A DNA stretch of 62,232 bases, the filler included, from Basidiobolus ranarum (lineage: Eukaryota), in NCBI GenBank assembly GCA_040143965.1. It is 24 parts of 24 records of this genome, joined end to end, with 100 filler letters (N's around TTAATTAATTAA, not from the genome) between each part and the next. Parts side by side here need not be neighbours in the genome. Positions count along the whole stretch, not along the records: positions 49,392 to 51,881 come from JASJQH010003278.1; 23 more parts are not named here. One strand, written 5' to 3'. Numbering within the stretch: position 1 is the stretch's first letter; every line of letters begins with the position of its first letter. A program made the position numbers and the translations under genes. Below the pieces are notes generated by a model. That model was not told the origin of the DNA, made no database searches, and was given only the letters and a program-made list of their open reading frames with translations. Shown in pieces: positions 5,216 to 59,646 of this stretch.

Positions 5216-7170
5216 AGACCTGGTACAAGTTGAAAACACTTGTCAACTCCATGACTTATAATTCTTCAGTAATTAAACTAAATTCATGTCAAAATGGTTG
5301 TTTGGCTTTTACTGGTGATCTGAAAAACCTGAAATTATGTACAGTTTGCATACAATGCCAATCAGTAAATCAGGCAAGTATTGTTCATATTTGGCTTAGA
5401 TTGCATTGATTCTCCATCTTAAGGTTTGATGCAATCATCTAAATATAGATCATTGATCCAACAACAAAGTACTCACCATAAAGTGGATGCTACTTCCAAT
5501 ATACTTGATATCACTACCAGAATCTGAAAAGTCAAGTTTCTTTGAGAACATCTTTGATCATGCATTTGCATTGGCTCTGGATGATTTCTCACTAAACAAC
5601 TGTACTGTTGGTAAGGCTTGCTGGCCAATATATTTAATTAACTAAATCTTACTCCTTCTGAACAGTATATTAGTCATCATATTTTGATACTATCCATCAT
5701 ATCTGGACCTAAATCACCATTGCTTATAGATAGCTTCTTGGAGCCTTTGATTGCAGCATTTGAATGATTATCTAATGGGATTCTGATAGGTGAATAGTTT
5801 ATTAAAGCTGATATCATTGTGTGTATTGGTGAAGCTCCTGCCATCAGTAAACCTGGAGGTTTTTGTGGTCACAATGCAATATCTTGCTGTAGATTTTGTC
5901 AAATAAACAAAGTTTACTCTATCAGGTGTACACATTACTACTATCAAAGTATAACACTAAACTTCATGATTTTACCATCATGAACCTGTTAAGATTTCAA
6001 CACGCTCACTGATTTCAATTCACCAAGTAGCCACTCTAACATCAAATTTGTTATCAGCCATAAGCCTAAGAATATATTGCTAAAAGGGATTAGCTGGAGC
6101 CAGAGCTTCCCATTAGGCACTACATATGTACTATTCAACAACATTCAAATAACACTTACTCAGCTTTATAGTAGAAAATGCAATATGAATGAATAAGTCA
6201 AGATAGGATTAAAGTTAGAAACAATTGGGAAAATGCTTGTAACCATCAAGATAACATCATATTTTATCAGGACTCCAACAACTTCCACTCATCTAGGCAT
6301 TTATCCAAATGCAAAGACTAGAAGTATTGAATTTGTATGTATTCAAGAGAAATCATGAATATATTTCTGCCTGATAAGTATTGGCAATGTGGGAGTTGAT
6401 TGTGGATATTGTTAATATACCCTTATGGTATCAACTCACATTGGCATATATTGTATAAATAGAGCAACTCTGCAAAGATATTGTGATTTGATATGAAAAA
6501 CTTTATTACAGGTTTGAAGAAAAAAGATCAAATCTATACCTGTATTCAATACATTCTCTGCTTCATCTTTCACAATGCTTAGAGATTATAGGCTACTGTG
6601 CAAAGATTTTGTAATTGGATGTGAAAAATTTTATTACAGATTTAAAGAAGATAGACAGCATATATTCTGGTATTCAATACATACCCTGCTGCATCTTTCA
6701 CAATGCTTAGAGATTATAGGCCCTTGCTATACATCCTGGGAGTTACCAATGGAGCACACCAGTGGTGAAATGATGCTCCAAGTGACATTGTCAATATGAC
6801 CATCTGCTAATCTGCTCAACAATGTATCAGCACAATCAGTAATGGATGTAATGTGATGGGTTATGAAGACTCCAGAGTATATTAACCTTCCAACAAAGGG
6901 CTCTTCTCAATGTGCCCATGGGTTATTGCATTGTTTGAGCACAATAACAGCAACAAAGCCCAATCAGTGGACACAAAGTAAGTACCTCTATATTTGGTCT
7001 AGTATGTTAGGGTGCTAATCTGTTGGTATTTCTAGGAAAGCTGCATGGCAGACTTCTTGGTACAATAGATCAAGATATGCAATATTATCGATTTAGCCAT
7101 GGGGTAATCTATTCAAATATTGACATATCTACTTGTGGCAGGACATTTGTTAACTGCAAGTTGGGGATAT
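5216..7170 (+). mobile_element. Degenerate CACTA/EnSpm-like (Transposase_21-type) DNA transposase
   Basis: Remnants of CxNGCLAF, ALALD, CWP, ISGPKSP..DSFLEPL, GHNA..CRFC, FPLGT.H, LLHLSQCLEIIGPC.T.WE.PME; many stops and frameshifts; matches other copies in the window. Confidence 0.85.
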
Positions 7171-7722
7171 CATTTCACCACAGGTTTGCTCCATTGGGTA
7201 CTTGCAGGATGTGTAGCAAGGGCTTATAATCTCTGAGCATTATCAAAGATGCAGCAGGGAATGTATTGAGTACCAGCATATATGCAGTCTATCTTCTTTA
7301 AACCTGTAATAAAGTTTTTCACATCCAATTACAAAATCTTTGCACAGTAGCTGTATCTGCCTGAGATCTGCCAATGTGAGTTGATGCCATAAGAAAGTAA
7401 TAACATTAATCACAAACAACTCCCAATGTTGCCAATACTTATGAGGCAGAATTCTTTTCAGGATTCCACTTGAACATATACAAATCCAATACTTCCAGTC
7501 TTTGCATTTTAATAAATGCCTAGATGAGTTGATATTCATGGGAGTCCTGGTAAAATATGATGGTATCTTGATGTTTTCAAGCATTTTCTCAATTGATTCA
7601 AACTTTGATCCTATCTCAAATGGCTCATTCATATTGAATTTTCCACTATATAGCTGAATAAGTAGTATTGGAATGTTGTTGAATAGTAAGTGCATAGTGC
7701 CTAATGGGAAGCTCTGGCTCCA
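7171..7722 (-). mobile_element. Inverted fragment of the same transposase, directly abutting the previous copy
   Basis: ORF 7243-7695 (MHLLFNNIP...KCKDWKYW...HSLLHL) is homologous to 6120-6770. Confidence 0.85.
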
Positions 7723-44210: not shown

Positions 44211-46436
44211 CATTCTGGGAGTTCCCAATGGAGTGCACCTGCAGTGAAATGTTGCTCTATGTGAAATTGTCAATATTACCATGTTCTAATCTGATTAATC
44301 AATGTATCAGCAAAATCAGTGATGGATGTAATGCAATGGGTTAAGGAGACTCCACAGTATATTAACCTGCCAACAAAGGGCTCTTTTCAATTTGCTCACA
44401 GGTTTTTGCATTGTTTGAGCACAATAACAGCAACAAAGCTCAATCCATGGACACAGAGTAAGTACCTTTATAATTGAACTAATTTGCTTGTGTGATAATC
44501 TGATGGTATTCTTAGGAAAGCTGCAAGACAGACTTCTTGGTGATATAGATGGAGATATGCAGTATTATTGTTTTAGCCATGGTGTAATCTATTCAAGCAC
44601 TGACACAGCTGCTTGTGGCAGGACATTTGTTGATTGCAAGTTGGGGATATATTTGCTGAATTCTTTACGGAAATTTGCCAAAATCCAAGAGCTTATTCTC
44701 ATTGTAAATGGTAACAAGTGTCAGCTATTTTCCAAGTGTCAGTACTATTCAAAATTTCAGATGTTTAGCAATTTTTCCACCATTAGTTTGCTGGTGAAGC
44801 ATATTGATGTTGTTGAGTTATGGACTTGTTCCATTGTGCCAGGATTTATCAGACCTTGGATCAATATATTAGAGTATATGTGATTGAAATTGATCGTGCC
44901 AGAGGGTGATAGATAGTGCCAAATTGTGCCGCATAAATTTTAGAATACTTTATCCAATATGATATATACAGCACAATTCGGCACTATCACAGAGAACAAG
45001 TCCTATGTCTGATCAGTCAAATATGTGCATATGTAGAGACTAAAAATAACAAGATTCTTGTATTTTTTGATTCTCATTATGGCTGGAATACAAAGCCTAA
45101 AATATCTAAATGAAGGCATGCATATTTATTCAAGTTTGTACAGCAGTAAACCAAGTAATTTGCTATTTGAAATTTATATTTTTGCAAAAATTGCTGGATA
45201 TTGAATAAAGCATGCCAAATTTGAGGATCAATATTTTAACATGTATGAATACCATCAAGATACTGTCAAGAAACCATCATCACACCATCAAAATCCCTGG
45301 CAGAATGCAAGCCAACAATATTGTGACGGTTCTCTGATGGTTTTGCTATTTTGGAGGGTGGATCCAATCCAGATCAAATCAGTTTTATTTTTGTTAGGGC
45401 AAAGTGCACCCACCATAATTTTCTAGGATAATCAATTTGCATTTCTTTGGCTAAAAATCTCAAATTGCACACTAGAAGTAAGCACATTGACATTCAACAT
45501 CACTTTATATATATGTGAATAACGTGAGAATTAGCAATTCCATATTGGAAATTTAAAACTTGTCCAAATTGCCCCAAATTTAGCTCATTTTACTCCCACC
45601 AATGTTCTAAACAGAACCCCAGTGTTAGCTTTCTGTATCTCCACCAAAATGTATAAATACTTAATTTCTGAACAGTAAATAATTATCTCACAAAGCTATT
45701 CACAACTCCACTTCTCTAAAGTTCCTCCAAAAGCTCATATTTTCCCAATAAATTTTATGACTTATAGTCCTTCAGTAATTAAACTACCTTCATATCCAAA
45801 TGGTTGTTTGGCTTTCACTGGTGATCTGAAAAACCTGAAGTCATGTACTGTTTGCAAACAATTGGCAATTACAGAATCAGATAAATATTGTTCATATGAT
45901 TGGGAAAATATGGGCTGTTTGGAGGAACTTTTGAAAAGTGGAGTTGTGAATAGCATTGTGACATAGTTATTTATTGTCCAGAAATTAAGTATTTATTCAT
46001 TTTGGTGGAGATACAGAAAACTAACACTAAGGTTGTGTTCACAACATCTGTGGGAGTAAGATGAGCTTTTTTTGGGGCAATTTGGACAAGTTTGCAATTT
46101 TCAATATGGAATTGGTAATTCTCACATTATTCACATATATATATAATATATGTTCCAATTTGCAGTTAAGTGATATTTGACTAAGTAACCTTAACTAACA
46201 TAAATGTGATATATGAAATAGGTAGGTATATAAAGATAGAGACAACAAATATGATAAAGACAATAAACCTCAACATATATTTGGCTTACATACCCTTGAT
46301 TCCCTCTCTTAAAGATTTGATAAAATCACCCAAATATAGATCATTGATCCACTACCAGAGTACTCACCATAACGTGGATGGTATTACCAATATAGTTGAT
46401 GAATATCACTACCAGAATCTGAAAAGTCAAGGTTTC
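44211..46436 (+). mobile_element. CACTA-like transposase fragments with a nested MITE and two family A LTRs in opposite orientation
   Basis: FWEFPME C-terminal part at 44211-45320; PNGCLAF...YHYQNLKSQGF part at 45756-46436, split by LTR 45898-46275 (TSD CATAT/TATAT). Confidence 0.85.
44822..45003. mobile_element. 182-bp MITE, PIF/Harbinger (Tourist)-like
   Basis: Perfect 10-bp terminal inverted repeat (TIR) GGACTTGTTC...GAACAAGTCC and 3-bp TSD TAT; the empty site GAGTTATGTCTG is seen in the sister copy near 25815. Confidence 0.85.
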
Positions 46437-46701
46437 TGTTGGATAATTAATCTTTATTCAACATCATAGTGAGCTTTAGTTATGATACATATATCAGAAA
46501 CAGAAAGCAACGTATCTATAGCCCCTATATTCTAAATAGGATTATCTCTTTATCTATATAACAAGTATGTCTTATTACCCCCACTTATCAATTATATCTT
46601 ATTACACAAACTCCTGAATATCTCAAACAATTGATTTACTTTTCTACTATATAAGTCACCATATACTCTTAAGAATAAACTAACTAAAACACACTATCAT
46701 A
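46437..46701. repeat. LTR-like insertion starting TGTTGG inside the transposase
   Basis: Abrupt junction after SQGF; its last ~58 bp are nearly the reverse complement of 5058-5115. Confidence 0.55.
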
Positions 46702-48540: not shown

Positions 48541-48658
48541 CTAAACATCATTCCGCAATGAATCATCACGTGATATGGAATGCTATATAACACAATCAGT
48601 TTGGGGACTCTGGAATCTTACAACAGTACCTTTCCCTAGTCACACAAGCAAGTACATA

Positions 48659-49291
48659 ATGACAAATGTCAAAAAGCAAAATGTGACCTTTGACCACCAA
48701 GGTCTCAAGATTGCTGGTATCTTGAACATTCCACACAATCTAAAAGAAACTGACAAACTTCCTGCAATAGTTTGTGTTCACCCTGGAAGCAGCTGCAAAA
48801 ATCAGACAGCTGGCCTTTATGCTGAAAAACTAGCAGAAGTTGGTTATATCACATTAGCATTTGATGCTTTGTATCAAGGTCAGAGTGAAGGCAATCTCCA
48901 GTATATTGAAGAACCAGCAGCACATGTAGAAGATATCCATTGCACAGTAGATTACCTCACTACACTAACATACATTAATGAAAATTGAATTGGTGTATTG
49001 GGTGTATGTGCTGGCAGAGGTTATGCCATGAAAACTGCTATGACCAAGCATTGTATCAAAGCTGTTGGAACCGTTGTTGGTGCTAACCTTGGGCAGTGCT
49101 ATTGTGACATGAATGGTGACACTGATGGTGTCATCAAAGCATTGGAAGCCATTGGCCAACAGCAAACTGCTGAAGCACGAGGCACTGAGGCATTGATTAC
49201 CAATTGGATCCCAAAAAATCAGGAAGAGAGGGAAAAGGCTGGTATTACCGATATTGACATCAGAGAAGCAGTTGATTACTACACAACCTCG
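48659..49291 (+). pseudogene. Bacterial-type YcjY-like alpha/beta hydrolase pseudogene, intronless, 3'-partial
   Basis: MTNVKKQNVTF...PAIVCVHPGSSCKNQTAGLYAEKLA..GYITLAFDA.YQG.SEG...VEDI...VDYL...EN*IGVLGVCAGRGYA...EAVDYYTT; a single in-frame TGA at 48986-48988. Confidence 0.88.
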
Positions 49292-49391: not shown

Positions 49392-49640
49392 TTCAATAGT
49401 ATGCACGTGGTTTGACTTCTTAGCAAGAACATAGATGGTGTTCTTGACAGTGTCGGTTGGGACAATGGAGCTATTGTCAGCTTCAGTGTAGGAAGTCTCA
49501 AACTTGCCATCGAGAAGAACCTGGCAGGTAAGCTCAACTACATCGTGCCAATTCTTGGTGTGACGAATAACCTTAGTGACGCGAACTTTAGTCTTGCCAT
49601 AGGCTTGTTTCTTCAAATAGGCGCTAGCGTTACTGGACAT
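49392..49640 (-). CDS. Uricase (urate oxidase) paralogue A, N-terminal 83 aa, 3'-partial
   Basis: YGKTKVRV, SYTEADNSSIVPTDTVKNTIYVLAK. Confidence 0.95.
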
Positions 49641-50219
49641 TTTCTACCTGGATACTATGATTGTTGTGTACTACTCTTACCCAGACTATGAGGCCATAGC
49701 CCACTTTTAAATACAACTTGATACAAACAAGTGGTTGCACTAGATCCGAAAGATATCACAAGATTAAAGTTGAATCTATATCGCTTGATGTGAGGCGGTC
49801 TCGACCCTGATACATTCATCATGTCACCCGAATAGGAAATGAATTATGGGGAGGACTTTTAATACTTTCACAGCAACGTAAACTTGCCCTCAACTTCGAC
49901 ATTAATTCCAAGCGGCTTGGATGTTCAGCAAATAATTATGGATAAATATTTAATCAACAAAGTGGCTATTTCATTTACATAGCTTCAGTGAAACAGTGAA
50001 AAATTGATACTACCGAGATCTTGATAATCTAATCTCAGTATAAGCCGAAATTTACTGTGCACTCGCCAATTTGAAAGGCTAGAACCCTCCAGCGTTGTCA
50101 CAAACTCCCATGTGAGTAGACTTCTAAATCGCCTCCCCAAGTTCGTAAATATATAAAGCTCCATGAGGCTCAAAAAACCATATCTGAAACTATTATTCCA
50201 AAAGAGTACTTAGCCAACC

Positions 50220-51110
50220 ATGTCTTCATCAGTTGAATTAAAACGCCAGGCTTACGGTAAAGCTAAGGTTAGAGTCACTAAAGCTATCCGCCACACTGCC
50301 CAATGGAACGATATCGTTGAACTTACCTGCCAAGTACTTCTTGAAGGTGATTTTGAGAAGGCCTACACTGAGGCTGACAACAGTATGGTAGTCCCAACTG
50401 ACACAGTTAGAAACACTTGCTATGTCATTGCCAAGAAATCTGACCATGTTCAAACCATTGAACGTTACGGTTACGAACTCGGCAAACACTTTGTTGACAG
50501 ATACCCCCATGTTACTCACGCCAATGTCCACATCGTTCAATCTCGTTGGGCCAGAATCAATATCAATGGTGAACCTCACCCTCACTCTTTCTACCGTGAT
50601 GGAGCTGAGACCAGACAAACCTGGTTGACGGTCACTGCCAACAGTGTCAGCATCAAATCTGGTTTGGAAGGTCTACTGGTGTTGAAGACTACTGGCTCAT
50701 CTTTCACTAATTTCCATCACTGCGAGAACACTACCCTACAAGATGCTGATGACCGTATTTTCTCTACCACAGTCAAAGCCCACTACAACATTGACACTTC
50801 AATTGGTATTGAGAATATTCCATTTGATCGTATTTTTGATGGAGTTCGTAAGACCACCTTGGATGTATTTGCTCATGATGACTCTGCCTCAGTCCAAGCT
50901 ACTATGTACCGCATGGCTGAGTTGATCTTGAAGCGATTCCCTGAAGTCAAGGACGTTCACTATGCCCTACCCAACAGCCATCACTTCACCACTAACCTCG
51001 CACCATTCAAGCTTCCAAACTCTGGTCAAGAAATGACTATCTTCTCACCCGTCACAGATTTCTCTGGATACATTACTGCAACCATCGGTCGTCGTAACAG
51101 TCGCATTTAA
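50220..51110 (+). CDS. Uricase (urate oxidase) paralogue B, complete, 296 aa
   Basis: YGK, ADNS.VVPTDTVRNT, LLVLKTTGSSF, TTL..ADDRIFST, SASVQATMY, LPNSHHF; PTS1-like C-terminal SRI; TATAAA near 50152. Confidence 0.97.
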   Translation: MSSSVELKRQAYGKAKVRVTKAIRHTAQWNDIVELTCQVLLEGDFEKAYTEADNSMVVPTDTVRNTCYVIAKKSDHVQTIERYGYELGKHFVDRYPHVTHANVHIVQSRWARININGEPHPHSFYRDGAETRQTWLTVTANSVSIKSGLEGLLVLKTTGSSFTNFHHCENTTLQDADDRIFSTTVKAHYNIDTSIGIENIPFDRIFDGVRKTTLDVFAHDDSASVQATMYRMAELILKRFPEVKDVHYALPNSHHFTTNLAPFKLPNSGQEMTIFSPVTDFSGYITATIGRRNSRI

Positions 51111-51534
51111 TTATTACGCATACTTAACTGTTCGTAACACTCTTGTCATATACATCCCCGGAAAATACTGAATATTTTTTGAATAAATTATTTTCATTAT
51201 ATATTTAATCAAATACATTCTCCATTCACTAATTTATTGTCATCACTAATGTGAATTTAATTTTTAACTATTACAAAATTCCATGTCAAACGATTAGACG
51301 TATGTCAGATTACTCGAGATTTATCCTATTCAGGAACTCTGTAAATGGATTCGGATTATTGTTACCTACACTTTAAGCCCCTATATAGAATTTTGAAGGC
51401 TAGTATTAAAGAAATTAAATCGCGCACACGAAACTTGAAGCACTATGTATGTATAATTCTCAATTTTATTAATGCAATCATAACCGTATTAAAAAAACTC
51501 AGGTATATGACTAAGGTAGAATGCTAAGCGGGTA

Positions 51535-51881
51535 TTAACGACGAGCGATGGTAGCAGTGATATAGCCTGATGGGTCACTGACAGGTTGGAAGATATTCAT
51601 ATCTTTACCTTCATTGGAGAGGTTAAAGGGTTTGAGGTTAACACTGAAGTAGTGCTTGTTGGGGAGTGCATAGCTGATCTCACTAACATCTACGTGCTGA
51701 GCTAACACACTCTCTCCCATCTTATACATGGTGGCTTGCACTGAGGCTGAATCATCGGTAGCAAAGGTACCGAGGGTGATCTCACGAACACCAGAAGCAA
51801 TCTCATCAAATGGAATAGACTCAATCTTGGATTTGTCTAAGCTGTAGGTCCATTTAGCATCGACACTGGTGGAGAAGATAC
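51535..51881 (-). CDS. Uricase (urate oxidase) paralogue C, C-terminal part, 5'-partial
   Basis: RIFSTSVDAKW...DDSASVQATMYKMG...YALPNKHYF...PVSDPSGYITATIARR*. Confidence 0.95.
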
Positions 51882-52979
51882 NNNNNNNNNNNNNNNNNNN
51901 NNNNNNNNNNNNNNNNNNNNNNNNNTTAATTAATTAANNNNNNNNNNNNNNNNNNNNNNNNNNNNNNNNNNNNNNNNNNNNATCATAGACAGATAATAAA
52001 GATTCCTATAGCAACTCAACTACGCTTGACTATTGAACATTGCAGTACAGATTCTTCCATAATTATCTTAACTTTTACAGCCATGGAATATATCCAACTC
52101 TTAATTAAAGTCTTTGCCAATCTTAAAAAAACTATATCTTTTTCTTCAGACTTCAAGTTATGGAAACCATCAGAGTTTTATCTACCATTGCAGTATTGAG
52201 AATTCTGATTGTTCTATTATCAGAAATAATCTTTTCTTGTAAAAGTCTTCAAGCAACTGACATACTAAAGTGTGTCTTTACCCATTAAAGATAGAGTGGA
52301 GAATATATCTCCTGCTAATATTTTTAAGCTTCTAGTATGAAAAAATTCAGCTTTGCTGGAGATTTGTAGTGGGATTAAGCTTTATTACTGAATATTCAAG
52401 TTAACACCCCTATCCCACACTACAACATTTGATGTTAAATTGACTTTTTGTTGAACTGATATTGGTCAGCTTGATGCAATCTGACCAGGCTCTTGATGGT
52501 AAAATCATAGAGTTTAGTGTCAAATTTGGATAGCAGTAATGTGTATACCTGGTAGAGTGAACTCCATTAATTGGACAAAATGAACAGCAAGATTAAGTCA
52601 TTGCACCTACAACTAATATTTAACTAGGGCTTTACAATCTCTCCACTTGCACTATTGCTGGAACATCTGATGAATTGATTAATGCTTCATCATTACTTGA
52701 GTTAGTTTCTGGCATGTTAATGCCTTTCAAAGTGGCTAGTGGATTGCTAGACTGCTCATCAGTTAAGTCCTCTGTTCTGGCTGGTTTTTTTCCTATTGTG
52801 CCAGCAGGCTTTAGCATCAAAGTCAATTTGATTGGTATTTTGAAAGCTTTTTGAATGGCATTAAAATTTTCATACAGTAAACTTGGTGTGATGAAATTGC
52901 ATAGAAACAGCTTATAATAAACCTAATTGCCATCCATTACTGGAAATTTCTTGTAAATCCCCTTGTGACTTATCTGTGA

Positions 52980-54471
52980 CACTGTCTCAGAATCAGCTTA
53001 TGATATTGATTGGCTATACCTAAAATACCACCCTAACATAGGAGGTGTCTTTTTTCTACAAGATCCTTCTCATGTTGCAACACAAATGTTTAAAGAAGCC
53101 CTGCTACTACTGTCACAAATTCTTATGCTATGAGAGCCAGAGGTGTAATAGAGAAAGTAATCACAAGCATGGTCACTGTACAAAGCCACCAACTGCACAA
53201 GCCTGGTGTATAACAACAGTAATAAGTGAACTAAATCAACATTAGTTTTGCCCATTGAGTCAAATGACTGTACTTTGCCTCAACGTTTTGGTAACACTGC
53301 CAAAAGTCAAGATACTGTGGAGTTACCATGGGTGTATGACTAGGATGAAGTAGGTAGAAATGCAACTTTGGTTGAACCAGTAAATCCAGACAACTGCTAA
53401 GGACATGCTTCTAAATGTTGACCTTGGTTATTCACAGTTGATTGGCAACTATTGCTTCCCACAGACCAGGTACAAGTGGAAAACACTTGTCAATTGTATG
53501 ACTTATAATCCTTGAGTATTGAAACTACCTTCATGTCCAAATGGTTGTTTAGCTTTCACCAGTGATCTGAAATACCTGAAGTCATATACTGTTTGCACTC
53601 AGTTGGCAATTACTCAAACAGGTAAATATCATTTATATTTGGCTGACATACCATTGATTTCCCATCTTAAAGTTTTGATGAAATCACCCAAGTATAGATC
53701 ATTGATCCAATACCAAAGTAGTCACCATAAAGCTGATGTTATTACCAATATACCTGATGGATATCACTACCAGAATCTGAAAAGTCAAGCTTTCTTTGAG
53801 AACAGGTATGATCATCAGTGTGCATTGGCTCTGGATTGTTTTTCAACTAAATAAATATACTGTTGGAAAGAATTGCTGGCCAATAATTTTAATCAACTTA
53901 AATCTTCCTCCTTCTGAATGGTATAAGAGTCATAATATTTTGATACTATCTATCATATCTGAACTTAATCACCAGTGCTTATAGATAGCTTCTTGGAGCC
54001 TTTGATTGCAAAAATTAAACAGTTATCTAATGGGGTTGAGGTTGGTGAATATTTTATTAGAGCTAATATCATTGTCTGCATTTGGTGCCCTACTACCTAC
54101 CAAATTCTTCACACCATTACAAAGATCTGCAATTCCAGAGTCAGATATACTGGCAAAAAAGCTTAATTTCACCATGGAACCAGGTACACCAGTTGGAAGA
54201 GTGCTTAATTTGAAAGTTTAGCCAACAACTGGCACCTCTTAACAAGCCAAAGCACCAGCAAATATAACTCATGCTCTCCAACCTCAACTGGTACTTTTCA
54301 AAGTGTTGAAATTAGTCCCAAAGGTAAAGGCACGCAAAAAGCCGCATAAACACTGCAAAGCACCCTCAGTAGTGTCACACTACAAGGATGTACAAAAATA
54401 GTCAAAGAGCTTGAGGAGTATTTTCAAAAGTATGAAGGGAAAAACACAGTGCAAGTATGCAGAAAGTGGCT
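52980..54471 (+). mobile_element. Internally deleted CACTA-like transposase (52980-54082) fused to an ORF2 fragment (54083-54471); small inverted transposase piece near 52430-52600
   Basis: KPCYYCHKFLCYES, CPNGCLAF, CWPIILINLNLPPSE, DSFLEPL, then a switch to PTKFFTPLQRSAIPESDI. Confidence 0.85.
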
Positions 54472-54571
54472 NNNNNNNNNNNNNNNNNNNNNNNNNNNNN
54501 NNNNNNNNNNNNNNNTTAATTAATTAANNNNNNNNNNNNNNNNNNNNNNNNNNNNNNNNNNNNNNNNNNNN

Positions 54572-56340
54572 CACATGCTGCTCCTTGCTTATATTCTCAT
54601 ATGGGCTTTCAATCAATCCCACACCATACATCGGAGCATCACCATGACAATCTGGTAGAGCAGAATATGTGACAGACTATTCCGCCTATACAATGACCCA
54701 AAATTGGTTAGGCACATGAAAGAGAAATCTCGTTGGAAAACTGGCAAACCAAAAGACTCTGAATGTCAGAGCTGCCATCACTTGCTCTGATGATTAATGG
54801 TTTAGCATTTTGGAAACTGTGTGGAATCTTGCCCTCAATCATCTTGATTCAAGCCAATTGTGGAAAAAGCAATAACCAGGCATTACTCTGAAGGTTTTGA
54901 CTTATTTTATGCAGCTTATCCTGGGTTTTTGTAAGCAAATGGCAATTGTGCTTGTATATGCCTGTTCATGAAACATCTCCAAAAAGTATGCAATAATTGA
55001 ACTGGAAAAGAAAGAAAAACAGCTAAAAAAGTACTCAAGGAACAGAAAGTTAGTAAGCCCAAGGGAAAAGCAAAGGGGTCTGTGGGCTTAGGCTCTACTG
55101 TGCTACTTATCAAATTCTTAAAACCATTACAAAAATTTATATTACCAGAGTCAGACATACCTGCTGATATATTGGCAAAAAGGCTTATTCTTACCATATA
55201 ACTAGGTACACTAGTTGGAAGAGTGCTAAGTTCAGAAGCTTGTCCAACATCTGGCACCTTGCAACCAGCCAAAACACTGTTTAACAGAACTCATGGCTCT
55301 CCAACTTCAGCTGGTGCATTTCAAAGTGTCAGAATTGTGCTTCAGAAGTAGATACTGTCAGATCAATGGAGTTTACTCTACCAGGCATACACATAACTAC
55401 TATCCATATGCAATACTAAACTCCATGATTTTACCATCAAGAGCCAAGTCAAATTTCAACATGTTACAGATATCAATTCACCAAATTATTGGTCTGACAT
55501 CAAATTTGGGATTAGCCATAAGCCTAAAATTATATTGCTAAAGGGGATCAGCTGGAGCCAGAGCTTCACATTAGGCACTATGCACTTACTATTCAACAAT
55601 ATATCAATACTACATACTCAGCTGTACAGTGGAAAATTCAATCTGAATAAACCAATTGAGATAGTATCAAAGTTTGAATCATTGGGAAAATGCTTGACCA
55701 CATCAAGATACCATCATATTTTACCAGAACTCCCATCATTATCCACTCATCTAGGCATTTATACAAATACAAAGACTTGAAGTATTGGACTTGTATATAT
55801 TCAAGTTGAGTCTTGAAAAGATCTCTGCCTGATAAGTATTGGCAAAGTTGTCAGTTGTTTCTGGATATTGTTAATATATTCTTATGGTATCACCTCTCAT
55901 TGGCTGATCTCAGGCAGATACAGCTACTGCACAAAAATTTTGTAATTGGATATAACAAACTTTATTACAGGTTTAAAGAAGATAGACTGAATCTATGCCA
56001 GTATTCTGTACATTCCCTGCTGCATCTTACACAATGCTTAGAGATTATAAGCCCTTCTTATACATTCCAAAGGTGACAAATTGGGGTTTGAGTGGTAAAT
56101 GTGTAAAATTTGTGTTATGTTTCTCACACTTGTGATGTTACATAGTTTTCTGATAATGTACCTATTCATGCTTAGCAATTGTGTGAGATCTTTGTGTTTC
56201 CCTCCTGAAATTGAAAAAATTGGTTAAAATCAAATCTAACCAGATGATTTTATGATTGTAAGTAAATGATCAGCCAAGAATGTATCAAAATTTTGATGGT
56301 TTTGTTATAATAACAATGCCCAAATTTCTGTTAGTGTTTA
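54572..56340 (+). mobile_element. Mosaic of ORF2 (54572-55335), transposase core (55340-56070) and ORF2 3' flank
   Basis: Homology to the other copies; LGTMHLLFNNI, HSLLHLTQCLEII. Confidence 0.8.
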
Positions 56341-57269
56341 CTTAGCCATAAATATCTTGGCAGAAAATGCAAAATTTGTCAAATATATGTGATTTATCTA
56401 TGAATTAGTGATATTTACTGCATACTTCAAACTTGTCTATATTGCCCCAAAAATAGCTTGCTTTCCTTGTATAGTGGTTCTAAACACAACATCACTGTCA
56501 TTTCTATATAATTTGCTGCAATTTAGTAACACATTGTTTCTACTCAATAACTAACTAATCTTGCAGTTAAATTTGAACATCACCTTATAGAGTTTCTCCA
56601 TGTATCCCATGCAATGATGTAGTATTTTTAGATGCTACCTTTATAGTATTAATGCAGATTTGTTGCTCTTTAACTCTAATATATTATTATCCAGGTTCTA
56701 ATCTAAGATCTAATACAAATTCTTACATTCTTCACCAAGGGAATATCAATTTAATCTGCCATTGAGAGAAAATCTTTGCAAAGTATGTGTTGGATGGTCT
56801 TGATAATGTTGCTTTTGTTGAAGTTTATTGTCTTTATCATATGTATTATCTCTATCTTTATACACCTAACTATTTCATATATCACATATAAGTTAGTTAA
56901 CATCACTTAGTCAAATATCACTTAGCTGAAAATTGGAACATATATTATATATATATGTGAATAATGTGAGAATTAGCAATTCCATATTGGAAATTTCAAA
57001 CTCGTCCAAATTGCCCCAAAGATAGCTCATTTTACTCCCACAGATGTTCTGAACACAACNNNNNNNNNNNNNNNNNNNNNNNNNNNNNNNNNNNNNNNNN
57101 NNNTTAATTAATTAANNNNNNNNNNNNNNNNNNNNNNNNNNNNNNNNNNNNNNNNNNNNATTAGGGCAATAAACACACATTTTTGAATGGCAGAACTGAG
57201 TGCTAAATAATCACAATATGAATAAAGTAACTGCTGAATAAAGAGTTGCCATTGACCTAACTTCAACAA

Positions 57270-59646
57270 AACCAAAGACCATGCATTATGCAGAAGGTTC
57301 TTGACTTGTTCAATGTGGAATAATCTGGATTTTTGCAAGCCAAAGGCAATTAGGCTAGTATAGGCATATTCCATTGAATATCAACAAAATGTACATAATT
57401 ATCCACTTGGAGAGGAAAGAAAAACAGCTAAAGCTGTACCAAGAAACAAGAAGTGAATAAACCTAAGGGAAGAGTAAAGGAGCCAGAGGTTGTTGTTTGT
57501 GATGTCCCACCTGCCAATTTTCTCACACCATTTCTGAGACCAGCATTTTTTGAGTCAGACATACCAGCAGATACCATATGAAAAAAGCTTGATCTTACAA
57601 GGTAACCACTAACATCAGTTAATACAGTTCAAAAGAAGGGAGTTTCTCCAATGCCTGGTACTTCTATAATGAAGTTTACTTAGTTTGTTGATAAGTTAGT
57701 TATTGAAGTTAGTATCATTGTTTATCTCAGCTCATACACTTGATCAGCCTATCATTGAGATCTATTTATCTCTAACAAAGTAAAATTGATTTGTTCCAGT
57801 TTGAATCCACCCTTCTGGAGCACAAAACTGTCAGAGAACCATCACAATATGAGTAACTTATATTTTGTCAGATATCTTGACAGCAAGATGGCACCTTCCT
57901 AATGGTATTATAATAGGAATTGTACACGGTGAAATAATCTTCCTCATATTTGGCATATGTTATTTAATATCAAACAATTTTTGGAAAGAACCAATTTTTT
58001 TATGACAAATCACCATATTTACTGCTCTAGGAATTTAAACCAAGATTCATGCCTTTATTTAGAAATTCTGGGCTTTGTTTTCCAGCCATAATGTGAATCA
58101 AAAAATGCAAGAATCTTGTTGTGTTTAATCTCTTCAAATGTCCATACTTGACTGCTCTGGCATAACTCAATAACACAATATGCTTTACCAGCAAACTAAT
58201 GGTGGAGAAATTGCTAAACATCTGAAATTTTGCACAGTATGATGCTTGCCAAATAGCTGACTCTTGTTACCATTGATAATGAGAATCAGCTCTTGGATTT
58301 TGGCAAATTTCCACATTGAATTCAGCTAAAGTTTCATCACTTGCAGTCAACAAATATCCTGCTGTGGGTAGATATGTCATTGCTTGAATAGATTACCCCA
58401 TGGCTAAAGCAATGATAATTTGTAACTTAATCTTTCTCATCAAGAAGCCTGTCTTGCAGCTTTCCTGGAAACACCATCAGATTATCACCCATACAAAATA
58501 GGCTAAATTATGGTGGTACTTACTCTTTGTCCATGAACTGGGTTTGATGCTTTTATTATGCTCAACCAATGTCAAAACCCATGAGCACATTGCAAAAAGC
58601 CTTTTGTTGGAAGGTTAATAGAGTCTGGAGTCTCCTTAACCTACTGCACTACATCCAACACTGACTTCATCCATACATTGTCAATCCAATTAGCATACAG
58701 TCATATTGAAAATTTCACATGGAGCAGCATTTCATTACAGGCATACTCCATTGGGAACTCTCATAATGATTGGCAAGGGCTTGTAATCTCTAAGCATTGA
58801 GAAATATGCAGTAGTAAATGTATTGAAAACAGATAATGATTCAGTGTATCCTCTTGAAATCTATCATAGAGTATCTCATATTCAGTTACAAAATCATTGT
58901 ACTGATGTTGTATTTGCCTGTGATCTGCCAGTGTGAGTTGATGCCATAAGAATATATTAACAATATCCACAAACAAATCCCAATGTTGCAAATATTTATC
59001 AGGCTAAAATCTTTTCAAGATTCCATTTTAATATATGCAAATCCAATACTTTCAGTCTTTGCATTTAAATAAATACCCAAATGAGTGGATATCATTGGGA
59101 GTCCTGGTCAAATATGATGGTATCTTAATGTTTTCATTCATTTTCCCATTTGATTAAACTTTGAATCTATCTTGTATCTCTCACTCAGATTGAATTTTCG
59201 ACTATATAGCTGAGTAAGTAGTCCTTAACAGAAATTTGAGGATTGTTATTGTCAAAAACCTTCACTATTTTAATCCATTTGGGATTGACCATTTACTTAC
59301 CATCATAGAATTGTATTAATATGTGCTTGAATATTAAGAACATAATGCCTAATGGGAAGCTCTGGCTCCAGCTGATTTCCTATAGCAATATGAGCTTGGG
59401 CTTATGGTTAATCCCTAGTTTGATGTTAGACTGACTATTGATGAATTGATATCATTGAGCATATTGAAATCTGACAAAGCTCTTAACGTTAAAGTCATTA
59501 GGCTTAGTGCTGTATTTGGATAGTAGTAATGCATATGTGTGATAGAATAAACTCCATTGATCTGAAAGAATATATAGCAACATAGGGCATTTTGCCCACA
59601 AAAATCTGTATGTTTACTTATGGCAGGAGTGTCACCAATATATGCA
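57270..59646 (-). mobile_element. Older, more diverged CACTA-like transposase (57770-59646, minus) convergent with an ORF2 remnant (57270-57670, plus)
   Basis: Reverse-strand IGDTPA, GQNA, SFPLG, QHWDLFVDIVNIFLWHQLTLAD, EFPME remnants. Confidence 0.8.

Follow-up and report, generated by a model that had tools for sequence, protein, structure and literature searches.

The genome of Basidiobolus ranarum carries an amplified pair of uricase genes of two diverged classes, termed B and X, which recurs in Basidiobolus meristosporus; that this is a real, selected uricase expansion is close to certain. Uricase is normally a single enzyme. The uricase itself is ordinary, and the novelty lies in the amplified two-class pair. 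Taken as a whole, the observations are best explained by an amplification that provides dosage for purine waste, with B being peroxisomal and X cytosolic or piggy-backed (probability about 0.55).

Uricase genes in the window

The window, i.e. the whole stretch of B. ranarum DNA that was analysed (62,232 bases), consists of 24 contigs of about 2.5 kb each, joined by N spacers. The uricase genes lie on one whole contig, C3278, of 2,490 bases, both ends of which cut a uricase gene; it is a slice of a large array. The following features were assigned (positions in the window):

49392..49640, minus strand: uricase A, 5' part of a class X gene (codons 1-83), truncated by the contig end; K10, T57, D58 and K61 canonical
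49641..50219, no strand: head-to-head spacer between A and B, 579 bases; candidate bidirectional promoter
49800..49807, plus strand: short box CTCG[GA]CC[TC], located 140-170 bases ahead of where X starts; putative element
50220..51110, plus strand: uricase B, class B, intact and intron-free, 296 amino acids; assigned by Pfam Uricase, TIGR03383 and fold
51099..51110, plus strand: PTS1-like C-terminal tripeptide SRI with stop codon; fits the Histoplasma motif [ASPHC][KR][LI]
51111..51534, no strand: tail-to-tail spacer between B and C, 424 bases, AT-rich (GC 0.29)
51535..51879, minus strand: uricase C, 3' part of a class X gene (codons 183-296), truncated by the contig end; ends ARR-stop, without a PTS1

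The coordinates, strands and motifs of the three frames A (-), B (+) and C (-) agree with those in a preliminary description of this contig, and all three match Pfam Uricase (window B with 217.9 bits, in two stretches). Uricase A is 93% identical to the full-length X protein P0011 and 73% identical to window B; the respective values for uricase C are 97% and 59%. A and C are non-overlapping pieces of class X, and the contig therefore shows two classes, not the three distinct paralogues that had been proposed. The last 92 bases of C3278 equal the start of contig C5142 with one mismatch; a join of these contigs would lengthen the run to X-B-X-B.

A TATA-like box is located ahead of B (50150-50157). 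Seven head-to-head spacers (531-668 bases) were aligned and found to be mostly diverged; the box CTCG[GA]CC[TC], a post hoc pattern taken from this same alignment, is present in six of the seven, and of its 10 matches in 99,830 bases six fall in those spacers.

Copy number in Basidiobolus and other fungi

A six-frame search of the B. ranarum genome with window B gave 42 matches on 20 contigs, of which 16 were taken whole and four in part (C6929, C57, C7415 and C1288); the merged hits represent 38 uricase pieces, 20 of class B and 18 of class X. The local expansion that had been noticed is thus larger than guessed, genome-wide and common to two Basidiobolus species, and the suspicion that the array extends beyond the contig proved correct. 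At any one codon, up to 13 B and 13 X pieces coincide; this figure sets a minimum for the copy number and counts two broken pieces of each class. Complete genes number five in class B and four in class X, and contig ends cut most of the others. At least six of the 38 are broken or remnants: the pair on C57, three further B pieces (C5274, C3565 and C7415) and the X piece of C4099. The close adjacencies are B-to-X in 15 of 16 cases (eight head-to-head, four tail-to-tail and three head-to-tail), the other one being B/B (C9417). These pairs are not independent of one another, and a binomial p-value for mixed adjacency was set aside for this reason. No other purine genes were found beside uricase in the four flanks inspected. 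On contig C7564, frames whose translations resemble exportin-1 and Dre2/anamorsin lie in the 10 kb that separate the 3' end of an X gene from the 5' end of a B gene.

The best homologues carry the labels B. ranarum and B. meristosporus. For B. meristosporus CBS 931.73, 35 proteins were collected, and ORX81391 was dropped as a non-uricase located inside a uricase cluster; the remaining 34 uricase-like models comprise 18 B (four of them partial or degenerate), 15 X and one B/X chimera, mostly in alternating X/B order, as inferred from accession numbers rather than DNA. One 204-kb scaffold holds 16 models (ORY04230-34 and 38-48; 35-37 not seen), in which 12 of 13 adjacencies are mixed-class when the chimera is excluded, and on six further scaffolds X and B models follow one another directly. 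The chimera, ORY04230, is of class B for about 125 residues and of class X from about residue 150, with the switch near the T-fold boundary, and is probably a joined gene model rather than a real chimera. The rejected ORX81391 is a protein of 83 amino acids with a hydrophobic N-terminus that adjoins an X uricase on one scaffold; its C-terminal end is also fused to X in model ORX94542.

As a weak copy-number control, a search seeded from Zoopagales listed seven named Zoopagomycota species (Thamnocephalis, Syncephalis, Piptocephalis, three Dimargaris and Tieghemiomyces) with one cluster each among the best 120 of 1,362 matches; no Conidiobolus, Drechslerosporium, Schizangiella or free-living Basidiobolaceae were among these best 120 of 1,362.

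Control genes and background duplication

The single- or low-copy controls in the B. ranarum genome comprise TIM (one locus), GTP cyclohydrolase I (two) and XDH (three), and the downstream pathway is represented by HIU hydrolase (two), allantoinase (one over the cut-off) and OHCU decarboxylase (four, one broken); overall, control genes are found at 1-4 loci. Uricase exceeds these controls in copy number by a factor of several to more than ten. Allantoicase gave nine domain hits (about four genes) and NAT transporters 11 hits on 10 contigs. Other genes are multi-copy as well, i.e. catalase (33 matches) and guanine deaminase (23 matches). Background duplicates (allantoicase, NAT transporters, OHCU decarboxylase; six pairs) show dS of about 1.3-2.3; Basidiobolus is duplication-prone, and B. 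ranarum has been proposed to preserve redundant genes (PMC3281927).

A signal-peptide-like hydrophobic leader is present in four of six full guanine deaminase frames (C7019, C3, C1641, C7310, C2092 and C7767); the predicted secretion would fit purine scavenging outside the cell. The OHCU decarboxylases (C205, C154, C10386 and C6112) end in SVN, AKL and SKL, and the fourth, which is stop-broken, ends in SKL. Three catalase pieces are located on C8368, and two long open-frame catalase copies whose ends are intact terminate with SKA and NLA, neither being a canonical PTS1.

Divergence, selection and history of the copies

For dN/dS (Nei-Gojobori), 12 B and 12 X open pieces were used; broken and very short pieces were left out and saturated pairs were dropped. 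The median dN/dS is 0.052 for B (range 0.018-0.124; 54 of 56 pairs) and 0.062 for X (range 0.032-0.124; 52 of 53 pairs), at median dS of 0.63 and 0.81, respectively, and dS ranges from 0.1 to 2.7 across the uricase copies. On these values, the copies are old paralogues under strong purifying selection, not alleles. Since the background duplicates have dS of 1.3-2.3, most of the amplification is younger than the background duplication, and it is older than allelic variation.

A quick maximum-likelihood tree of 62 proteins (37 Basidiobolus, 25 outgroup; SH-aLRT support only) recovered Basidiobolus (support 99) and both classes (support 100 for B and 95 for X), on stems of 0.56 and 0.17, respectively. 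The gene tree and dN/dS proposed in the preliminary description returned two well-supported clades under constraint; the B stem is three times the X stem, and B evolved faster. In each class, one sub-clade unites the two species (in it, the C6929 pair groups with ORY03703/4 and ORX93025-28), and a larger one consists of B. meristosporus alone, which indicates that a large share of the amplification took place independently in each species. An ancestral Basidiobolus uricase split into B and X before the two sampled species diverged; thereafter, the B+X pair was duplicated repeatedly as one block, in head-to-head or head-to-tail layout. The distances among paired B genes mirror those among their X partners (Mantel rho 0.94 for 15 pairs, 0 of 5,000 permutations; rho 0.74 within the 10 pairs of the B. 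meristosporus main group, 0 of 5,000), with pairing being assumed inside the B. meristosporus array; for the nine pairs outside the array, rho is 0.82 (3 of 5,000). The pair is therefore the unit of duplication, which says nothing of physical interaction. No high-identity tract of B/X gene conversion was found in three B. ranarum pairs scanned (windows 0.52-0.82); the N at Y167 in four B. meristosporus X proteins could be such a tract.

Residues and fold of the two classes

Classes B and X share about 64% protein identity. Four of four proteins (two B and two X) scored 313-348 bits with TIGR03383, against a cut-off of 168.4. Fold prediction was performed for window B alone: the AlphaFold2 model (pLDDT 92.4) is a tandem T-fold, and its best PDB matches are Aspergillus flavus uricase (TM 0.90-0.93; 1r56, TM-score 0.93, rmsd 1.9 Å).

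Residues were compared among 17 B and 16 X full-length Basidiobolus proteins, excluding partial or gapped gene models, and an outgroup of 172 non-Basidiobolus uricase matches (280-335 amino acids, many unnamed). The residues K10, T57, D58, F159, L170, R176, S226, V227, Q228, N254, H256 and I288 are invariant in 17/17 B and 16/16 X; they include the catalytic triad K10-T57-H256, the ligand tweezers R176/Q228, the stacking F159 and the oxygen site N254/T57, as described in PMC3900588 and PMC2490695. Both classes thus keep all catalytic residues and, as judged from sequence, intact active sites, in agreement with the earlier observation that B retains the Lys of YGK, the TD pair, the Arg of DRI and the Gln of SVQ. 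The altered substrate range suggested for B found no positive evidence, as the substrate-binding residues named in those two descriptions are invariant in both classes. In the numbering of window B itself, the catalytic residues are K14, T60, D61, F162, R179, Q226, N252 and H254, and the class changes are N170, S253, H255 and F281.

At 83 columns that are at least 90% conserved in the outgroup, most B deviate at 10 and most X at two, both of the latter being common to B; B departs at eight otherwise conserved columns where X does not. The strongest B-specific change, which is absent from the preliminary description, is Pro284 to Phe (F in 17/17 B; P in 172/172 outgroup and 16/16 X); B-only changes comprise P284F, K255S/T, Y257H (13/17), V18A, S45A and F79Y, and Y167N occurs in 17/17 B and 4/16 X. 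Of the motifs that had been put forward as marks of B, TDTVRN and FHHCE were rejected. The R of TDTVRN (K61R) is copy-level variation, with R in 2/17 full-length B and K in 15/17. For FHHCEN, the N that follows FHxCE is indeed unusual (17/17 B, 4/16 X, 0/172 outgroup), whereas FHxCE is common to both classes and to 5/172 outgroup uricases, including three Schizosaccharomyces proteins. Mean cysteine counts of 3.2 and 1.6 in the two classes show no enrichment, and neither class begins with a hydrophobic leader (by eye). Counted from the zebrafish description in PMC5138847, F281, H255 and N170 of window B would lie in or beside dimer or tetramer contacts.

C-terminal tails and peroxisomal targeting

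In all 17 B proteins a tail of five residues is kept past the last conserved Arg, with I or F as its final residue; the closing tripeptides are NKF (eight, the commonest), SRI (two), NKI (two) and others (one each). In X, one to three residues follow and the B-type tail is lost in 16/16. The motif [ASPHC][KR][LI], which stems from Histoplasma, where SKI is an inefficient PTS1 (PMC13343957), was matched by 3/17 B, 0/16 X and 131/172 outgroup proteins; in the B. ranarum genome it is matched by 6 of 12 B ends, including the SRI of the window. A looser PTS1 pattern, written after the tails had been seen, matches 17/17 B and 0/16 X. No PTS1 was found at the C-terminus of the 16 full-length X proteins, and 13 X 3' ends showed no conserved extension past the stop from which a PTS1 could arise by read-through. 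The observation that B ends in the PTS1-like SRI and C in ARR without a PTS1 holds.

In the same genome, allantoinase ends in ARL and OHCU decarboxylase in AKL, SKL or SVN, so that a split with and without PTS1 recurs among the OHCU decarboxylase paralogues (AKL/SKL vs SVN). As canonical PTS1 are used elsewhere in the genome and the B tails are non-canonical, the B tail is probably a weak, non-canonical PTS1 with a predicted function in import. The proposed partitioning between peroxisome and cytosol is plausible by class (tail in 17/17 B, lost in 16/16 X), but only 3/17 B match the tested fungal PTS1.

Proposed explanation and alternatives

The amplification may represent a gene-dosage adaptation for the oxidation of abundant animal purine waste in gut contents and faecal pellets, which we consider reasonably probable. 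Basidiobolus is a fungus of the herptile gut and of faecal pellets (PMC10964425); the pellets in which it is shed are where it germinates, and its cycle includes insects (PMC10964425, PMC9506373); reptiles excrete nitrogen as urate (PMC10517255). The organism thus fits the reptile or amphibian gut niche in which the preliminary description had placed the host of the cluster; the examined parts of PMC10964425 and PMC9506373 contain no mention of uric acid. The purine sources would be urate from uricotelic hosts and insect prey, and guanine via the expanded guanine deaminases, with the extra dosage falling on the oxygen-dependent uricase step. A pure nitrogen-flux model does not predict that the downstream steps are barely expanded (allantoinase one, HIU hydrolase two), and the readiness with which Basidiobolus duplicates genes (PMC3281927; catalase, 33 matches) also counts against this reading.

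The two classes may have been kept by working in different places, B entering peroxisomes by its weak PTS1 and X, its tail lost, working in the cytosol or entering the peroxisome only when bound to B. This compartment split is put forward tentatively, at somewhat under even odds; it is favoured over a heteromer or a functionally shifted B as the reason for two classes. Against it, the B tails are non-canonical while allantoinase and OHCU decarboxylase use ARL, AKL or SKL.

B and X might alternatively be the subunits of one heteromeric uricase (e.g. B2X2), in which B imports and X piggy-backs; with an active site built from two chains, the pair would have co-evolved and strict 1:1 pairing would be explained. 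This reading, which we regard as unlikely, is consistent with the mixed-class adjacencies (15/16 in B. ranarum, 12/13 in the array of B. meristosporus), which occur in head-to-head as well as head-to-tail order, with the C57 pair being broken in both genes, with the eight conserved columns at which B deviates and X does not, and with the putative positions of F281, H255 and N170 in or next to subunit contacts (PMC5138847); piggy-back import of hetero-oligomers is known (PMC4680570). However, block copying of two genes yields 1:1 pairing without physical contact, a homotetramer is expected of the fully canonical X, urate oxidase is reported to prefer monomeric import (PMC4680570), and a few copies look unpaired (ORX65077; the C9417 B/B junction). 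The titles and abstract openings of the literature on urate oxidase heterotetramers gave no heteromeric uricase; if true, the B/X heteromer would be the first found in the literature searched. Doubtful, too, is a two-subunit B/X uricase whose paired cassette, more than tenfold amplified, serves a feeding system of secreted guanine deaminase, XDH and massed uricase, by which Basidiobolus would subsist on nitrogen waste from reptiles, amphibians and their arthropod prey.

Generic redundancy, in which the array would merely result from a genome that duplicates readily and is probably polyploid, with no special link to purine supply, is quite unlikely. Several genes are indeed old duplicates (allantoicase, NAT transporters and OHCU decarboxylase, dS about 1.3-2.3), B. 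ranarum has been proposed to keep redundant genes (PMC3281927), and at least 6 of the 38 uricase pieces are broken or remnants. Yet uricase outnumbers the controls (1-4 loci) by several times to over tenfold; with median dS of 0.63 (B) and 0.81 (X), most copies postdate the background duplicates and are nonetheless strongly constrained, and the amplification is found in both species, largely in separate sub-clades.

Bulk uricase could also serve other ends (H2O2 against gut or dung bacteria, O2 use, a crystalline core), or B could have shifted in substrate or kinetics; we consider this very unlikely. The H2O2-producing step alone is strongly amplified, catalase is multi-copy too, and the B stem is long (0.56 vs 0.17 for X). 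Mammalian peroxisomes contain crystalline uricase cores. Co-option of uricase is known in reptile skin (PMC10517255). On the other hand, neither class has a hydrophobic leader (by eye) or cysteine enrichment, no residue that contacts the substrate varies, and the expansion of guanine deaminase upstream suggests purine uptake.

An artefact, i.e. uncollapsed alleles, misassembly, or A and C as halves of one collapsed repeat, is hardly credible and, for the array as a whole, largely refuted: the assembly is fragmented (13,754 contigs, with breaks inside genes) and a few overlaps are 97-100% identical, but dS between window B and 11 other B pieces is 0.40-1.87, the intergenic spacers are highly diverged, the independent assembly of B. 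meristosporus shows the same alternating array, and A and C are probably different genes since the end of C matches C5142, and dS between A and the 5' part of X on that contig is 0.76.

The life of Basidiobolus in herptile guts and droppings is poorly known, and a selected amplification at genus level provides a testable nutritional hypothesis.

Other features of the window

On a neighbouring, CpG-poor contig, a frame at 48658-49291 (plus strand) with HPGSS and GVCAG motifs and a TGA interruption near 48986 was observed, which we take to be alpha/beta-hydrolase-like. In 12 of the 24 window contigs (e.g. 5216-7722, 44211-46701 and 51982-59646), CpG observed/expected is 0.03-0.12, compared with 0.36-0.82 in the others; the CpG-depleted contigs look like decayed repeats, and the depletion suggests methylation-driven decay.

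Comparison with known uricases

No prior report of the Basidiobolus uricase expansion was found in a search of mostly open main texts. The examined parts of two Basidiobolus genome papers, whose topics are horizontal transfer, secondary metabolism and phylogeny, hold no passage on uric acid or purines, and no fungal uricase expansion was found in the examined parts of a 2026 review of uric acid enzymes (PMC13751858). The largest uricase duplication found in print is a two-copy case in turtles (PMC10517255). B and X represent a natural pair of diverged uricases, one of them substituted at a proline that all 172 outgroup proteins keep, and are useful for studies of how oligomers evolve, of import into peroxisomes and of diversity within a drug-relevant enzyme family.

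The Basidiobolus proteins resemble A. flavus urate oxidase (1r4s, 1r56, 2iba; PF01014, TIGR03383), a homotetramer (PMC3900588), in the tandem T-fold (modelled for window B; TM 0.93 to 1r56) and in K10, T57, D58, F159, R176, Q228, N254 and H256, which are kept in both classes. They differ from the outgroup proteins, most of which end in a canonical PTS1 (131/172), by the tail-less X and by two fixed classes in more than 20 copies, with P284F, K255S/T, Y257H and Y167N in B. The uricases of Schizosaccharomyces share the FHKCE segment and, as in class X, a C-terminus without PTS1 (ARK/ARD); unlike Basidiobolus, they form one cluster per species among the matches listed, have no partner class and are not sister to Basidiobolus in the tree.

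Turtle Uox/Uox2 and reptilian CRUOX (PMC10517255) are likewise lineage-specific uricase duplicates with diverged residues; these are, however, two copies with an active-site change and cysteine enrichment, whereas the Basidiobolus pair keeps invariant active-site residues and has been multiplied more than tenfold. The PTS2-less allantoin synthase of plants (PMC13691922) provides a precedent for a non-peroxisomal pathway isoform, which is described as arising by splicing and not from a paired array. Nephromyces (PMC6320678), a microbe that also lives in a urate-rich animal niche, invests heavily in uricolysis as well, but is described as doing so through expression level rather than through a paired gene array as in Basidiobolus.
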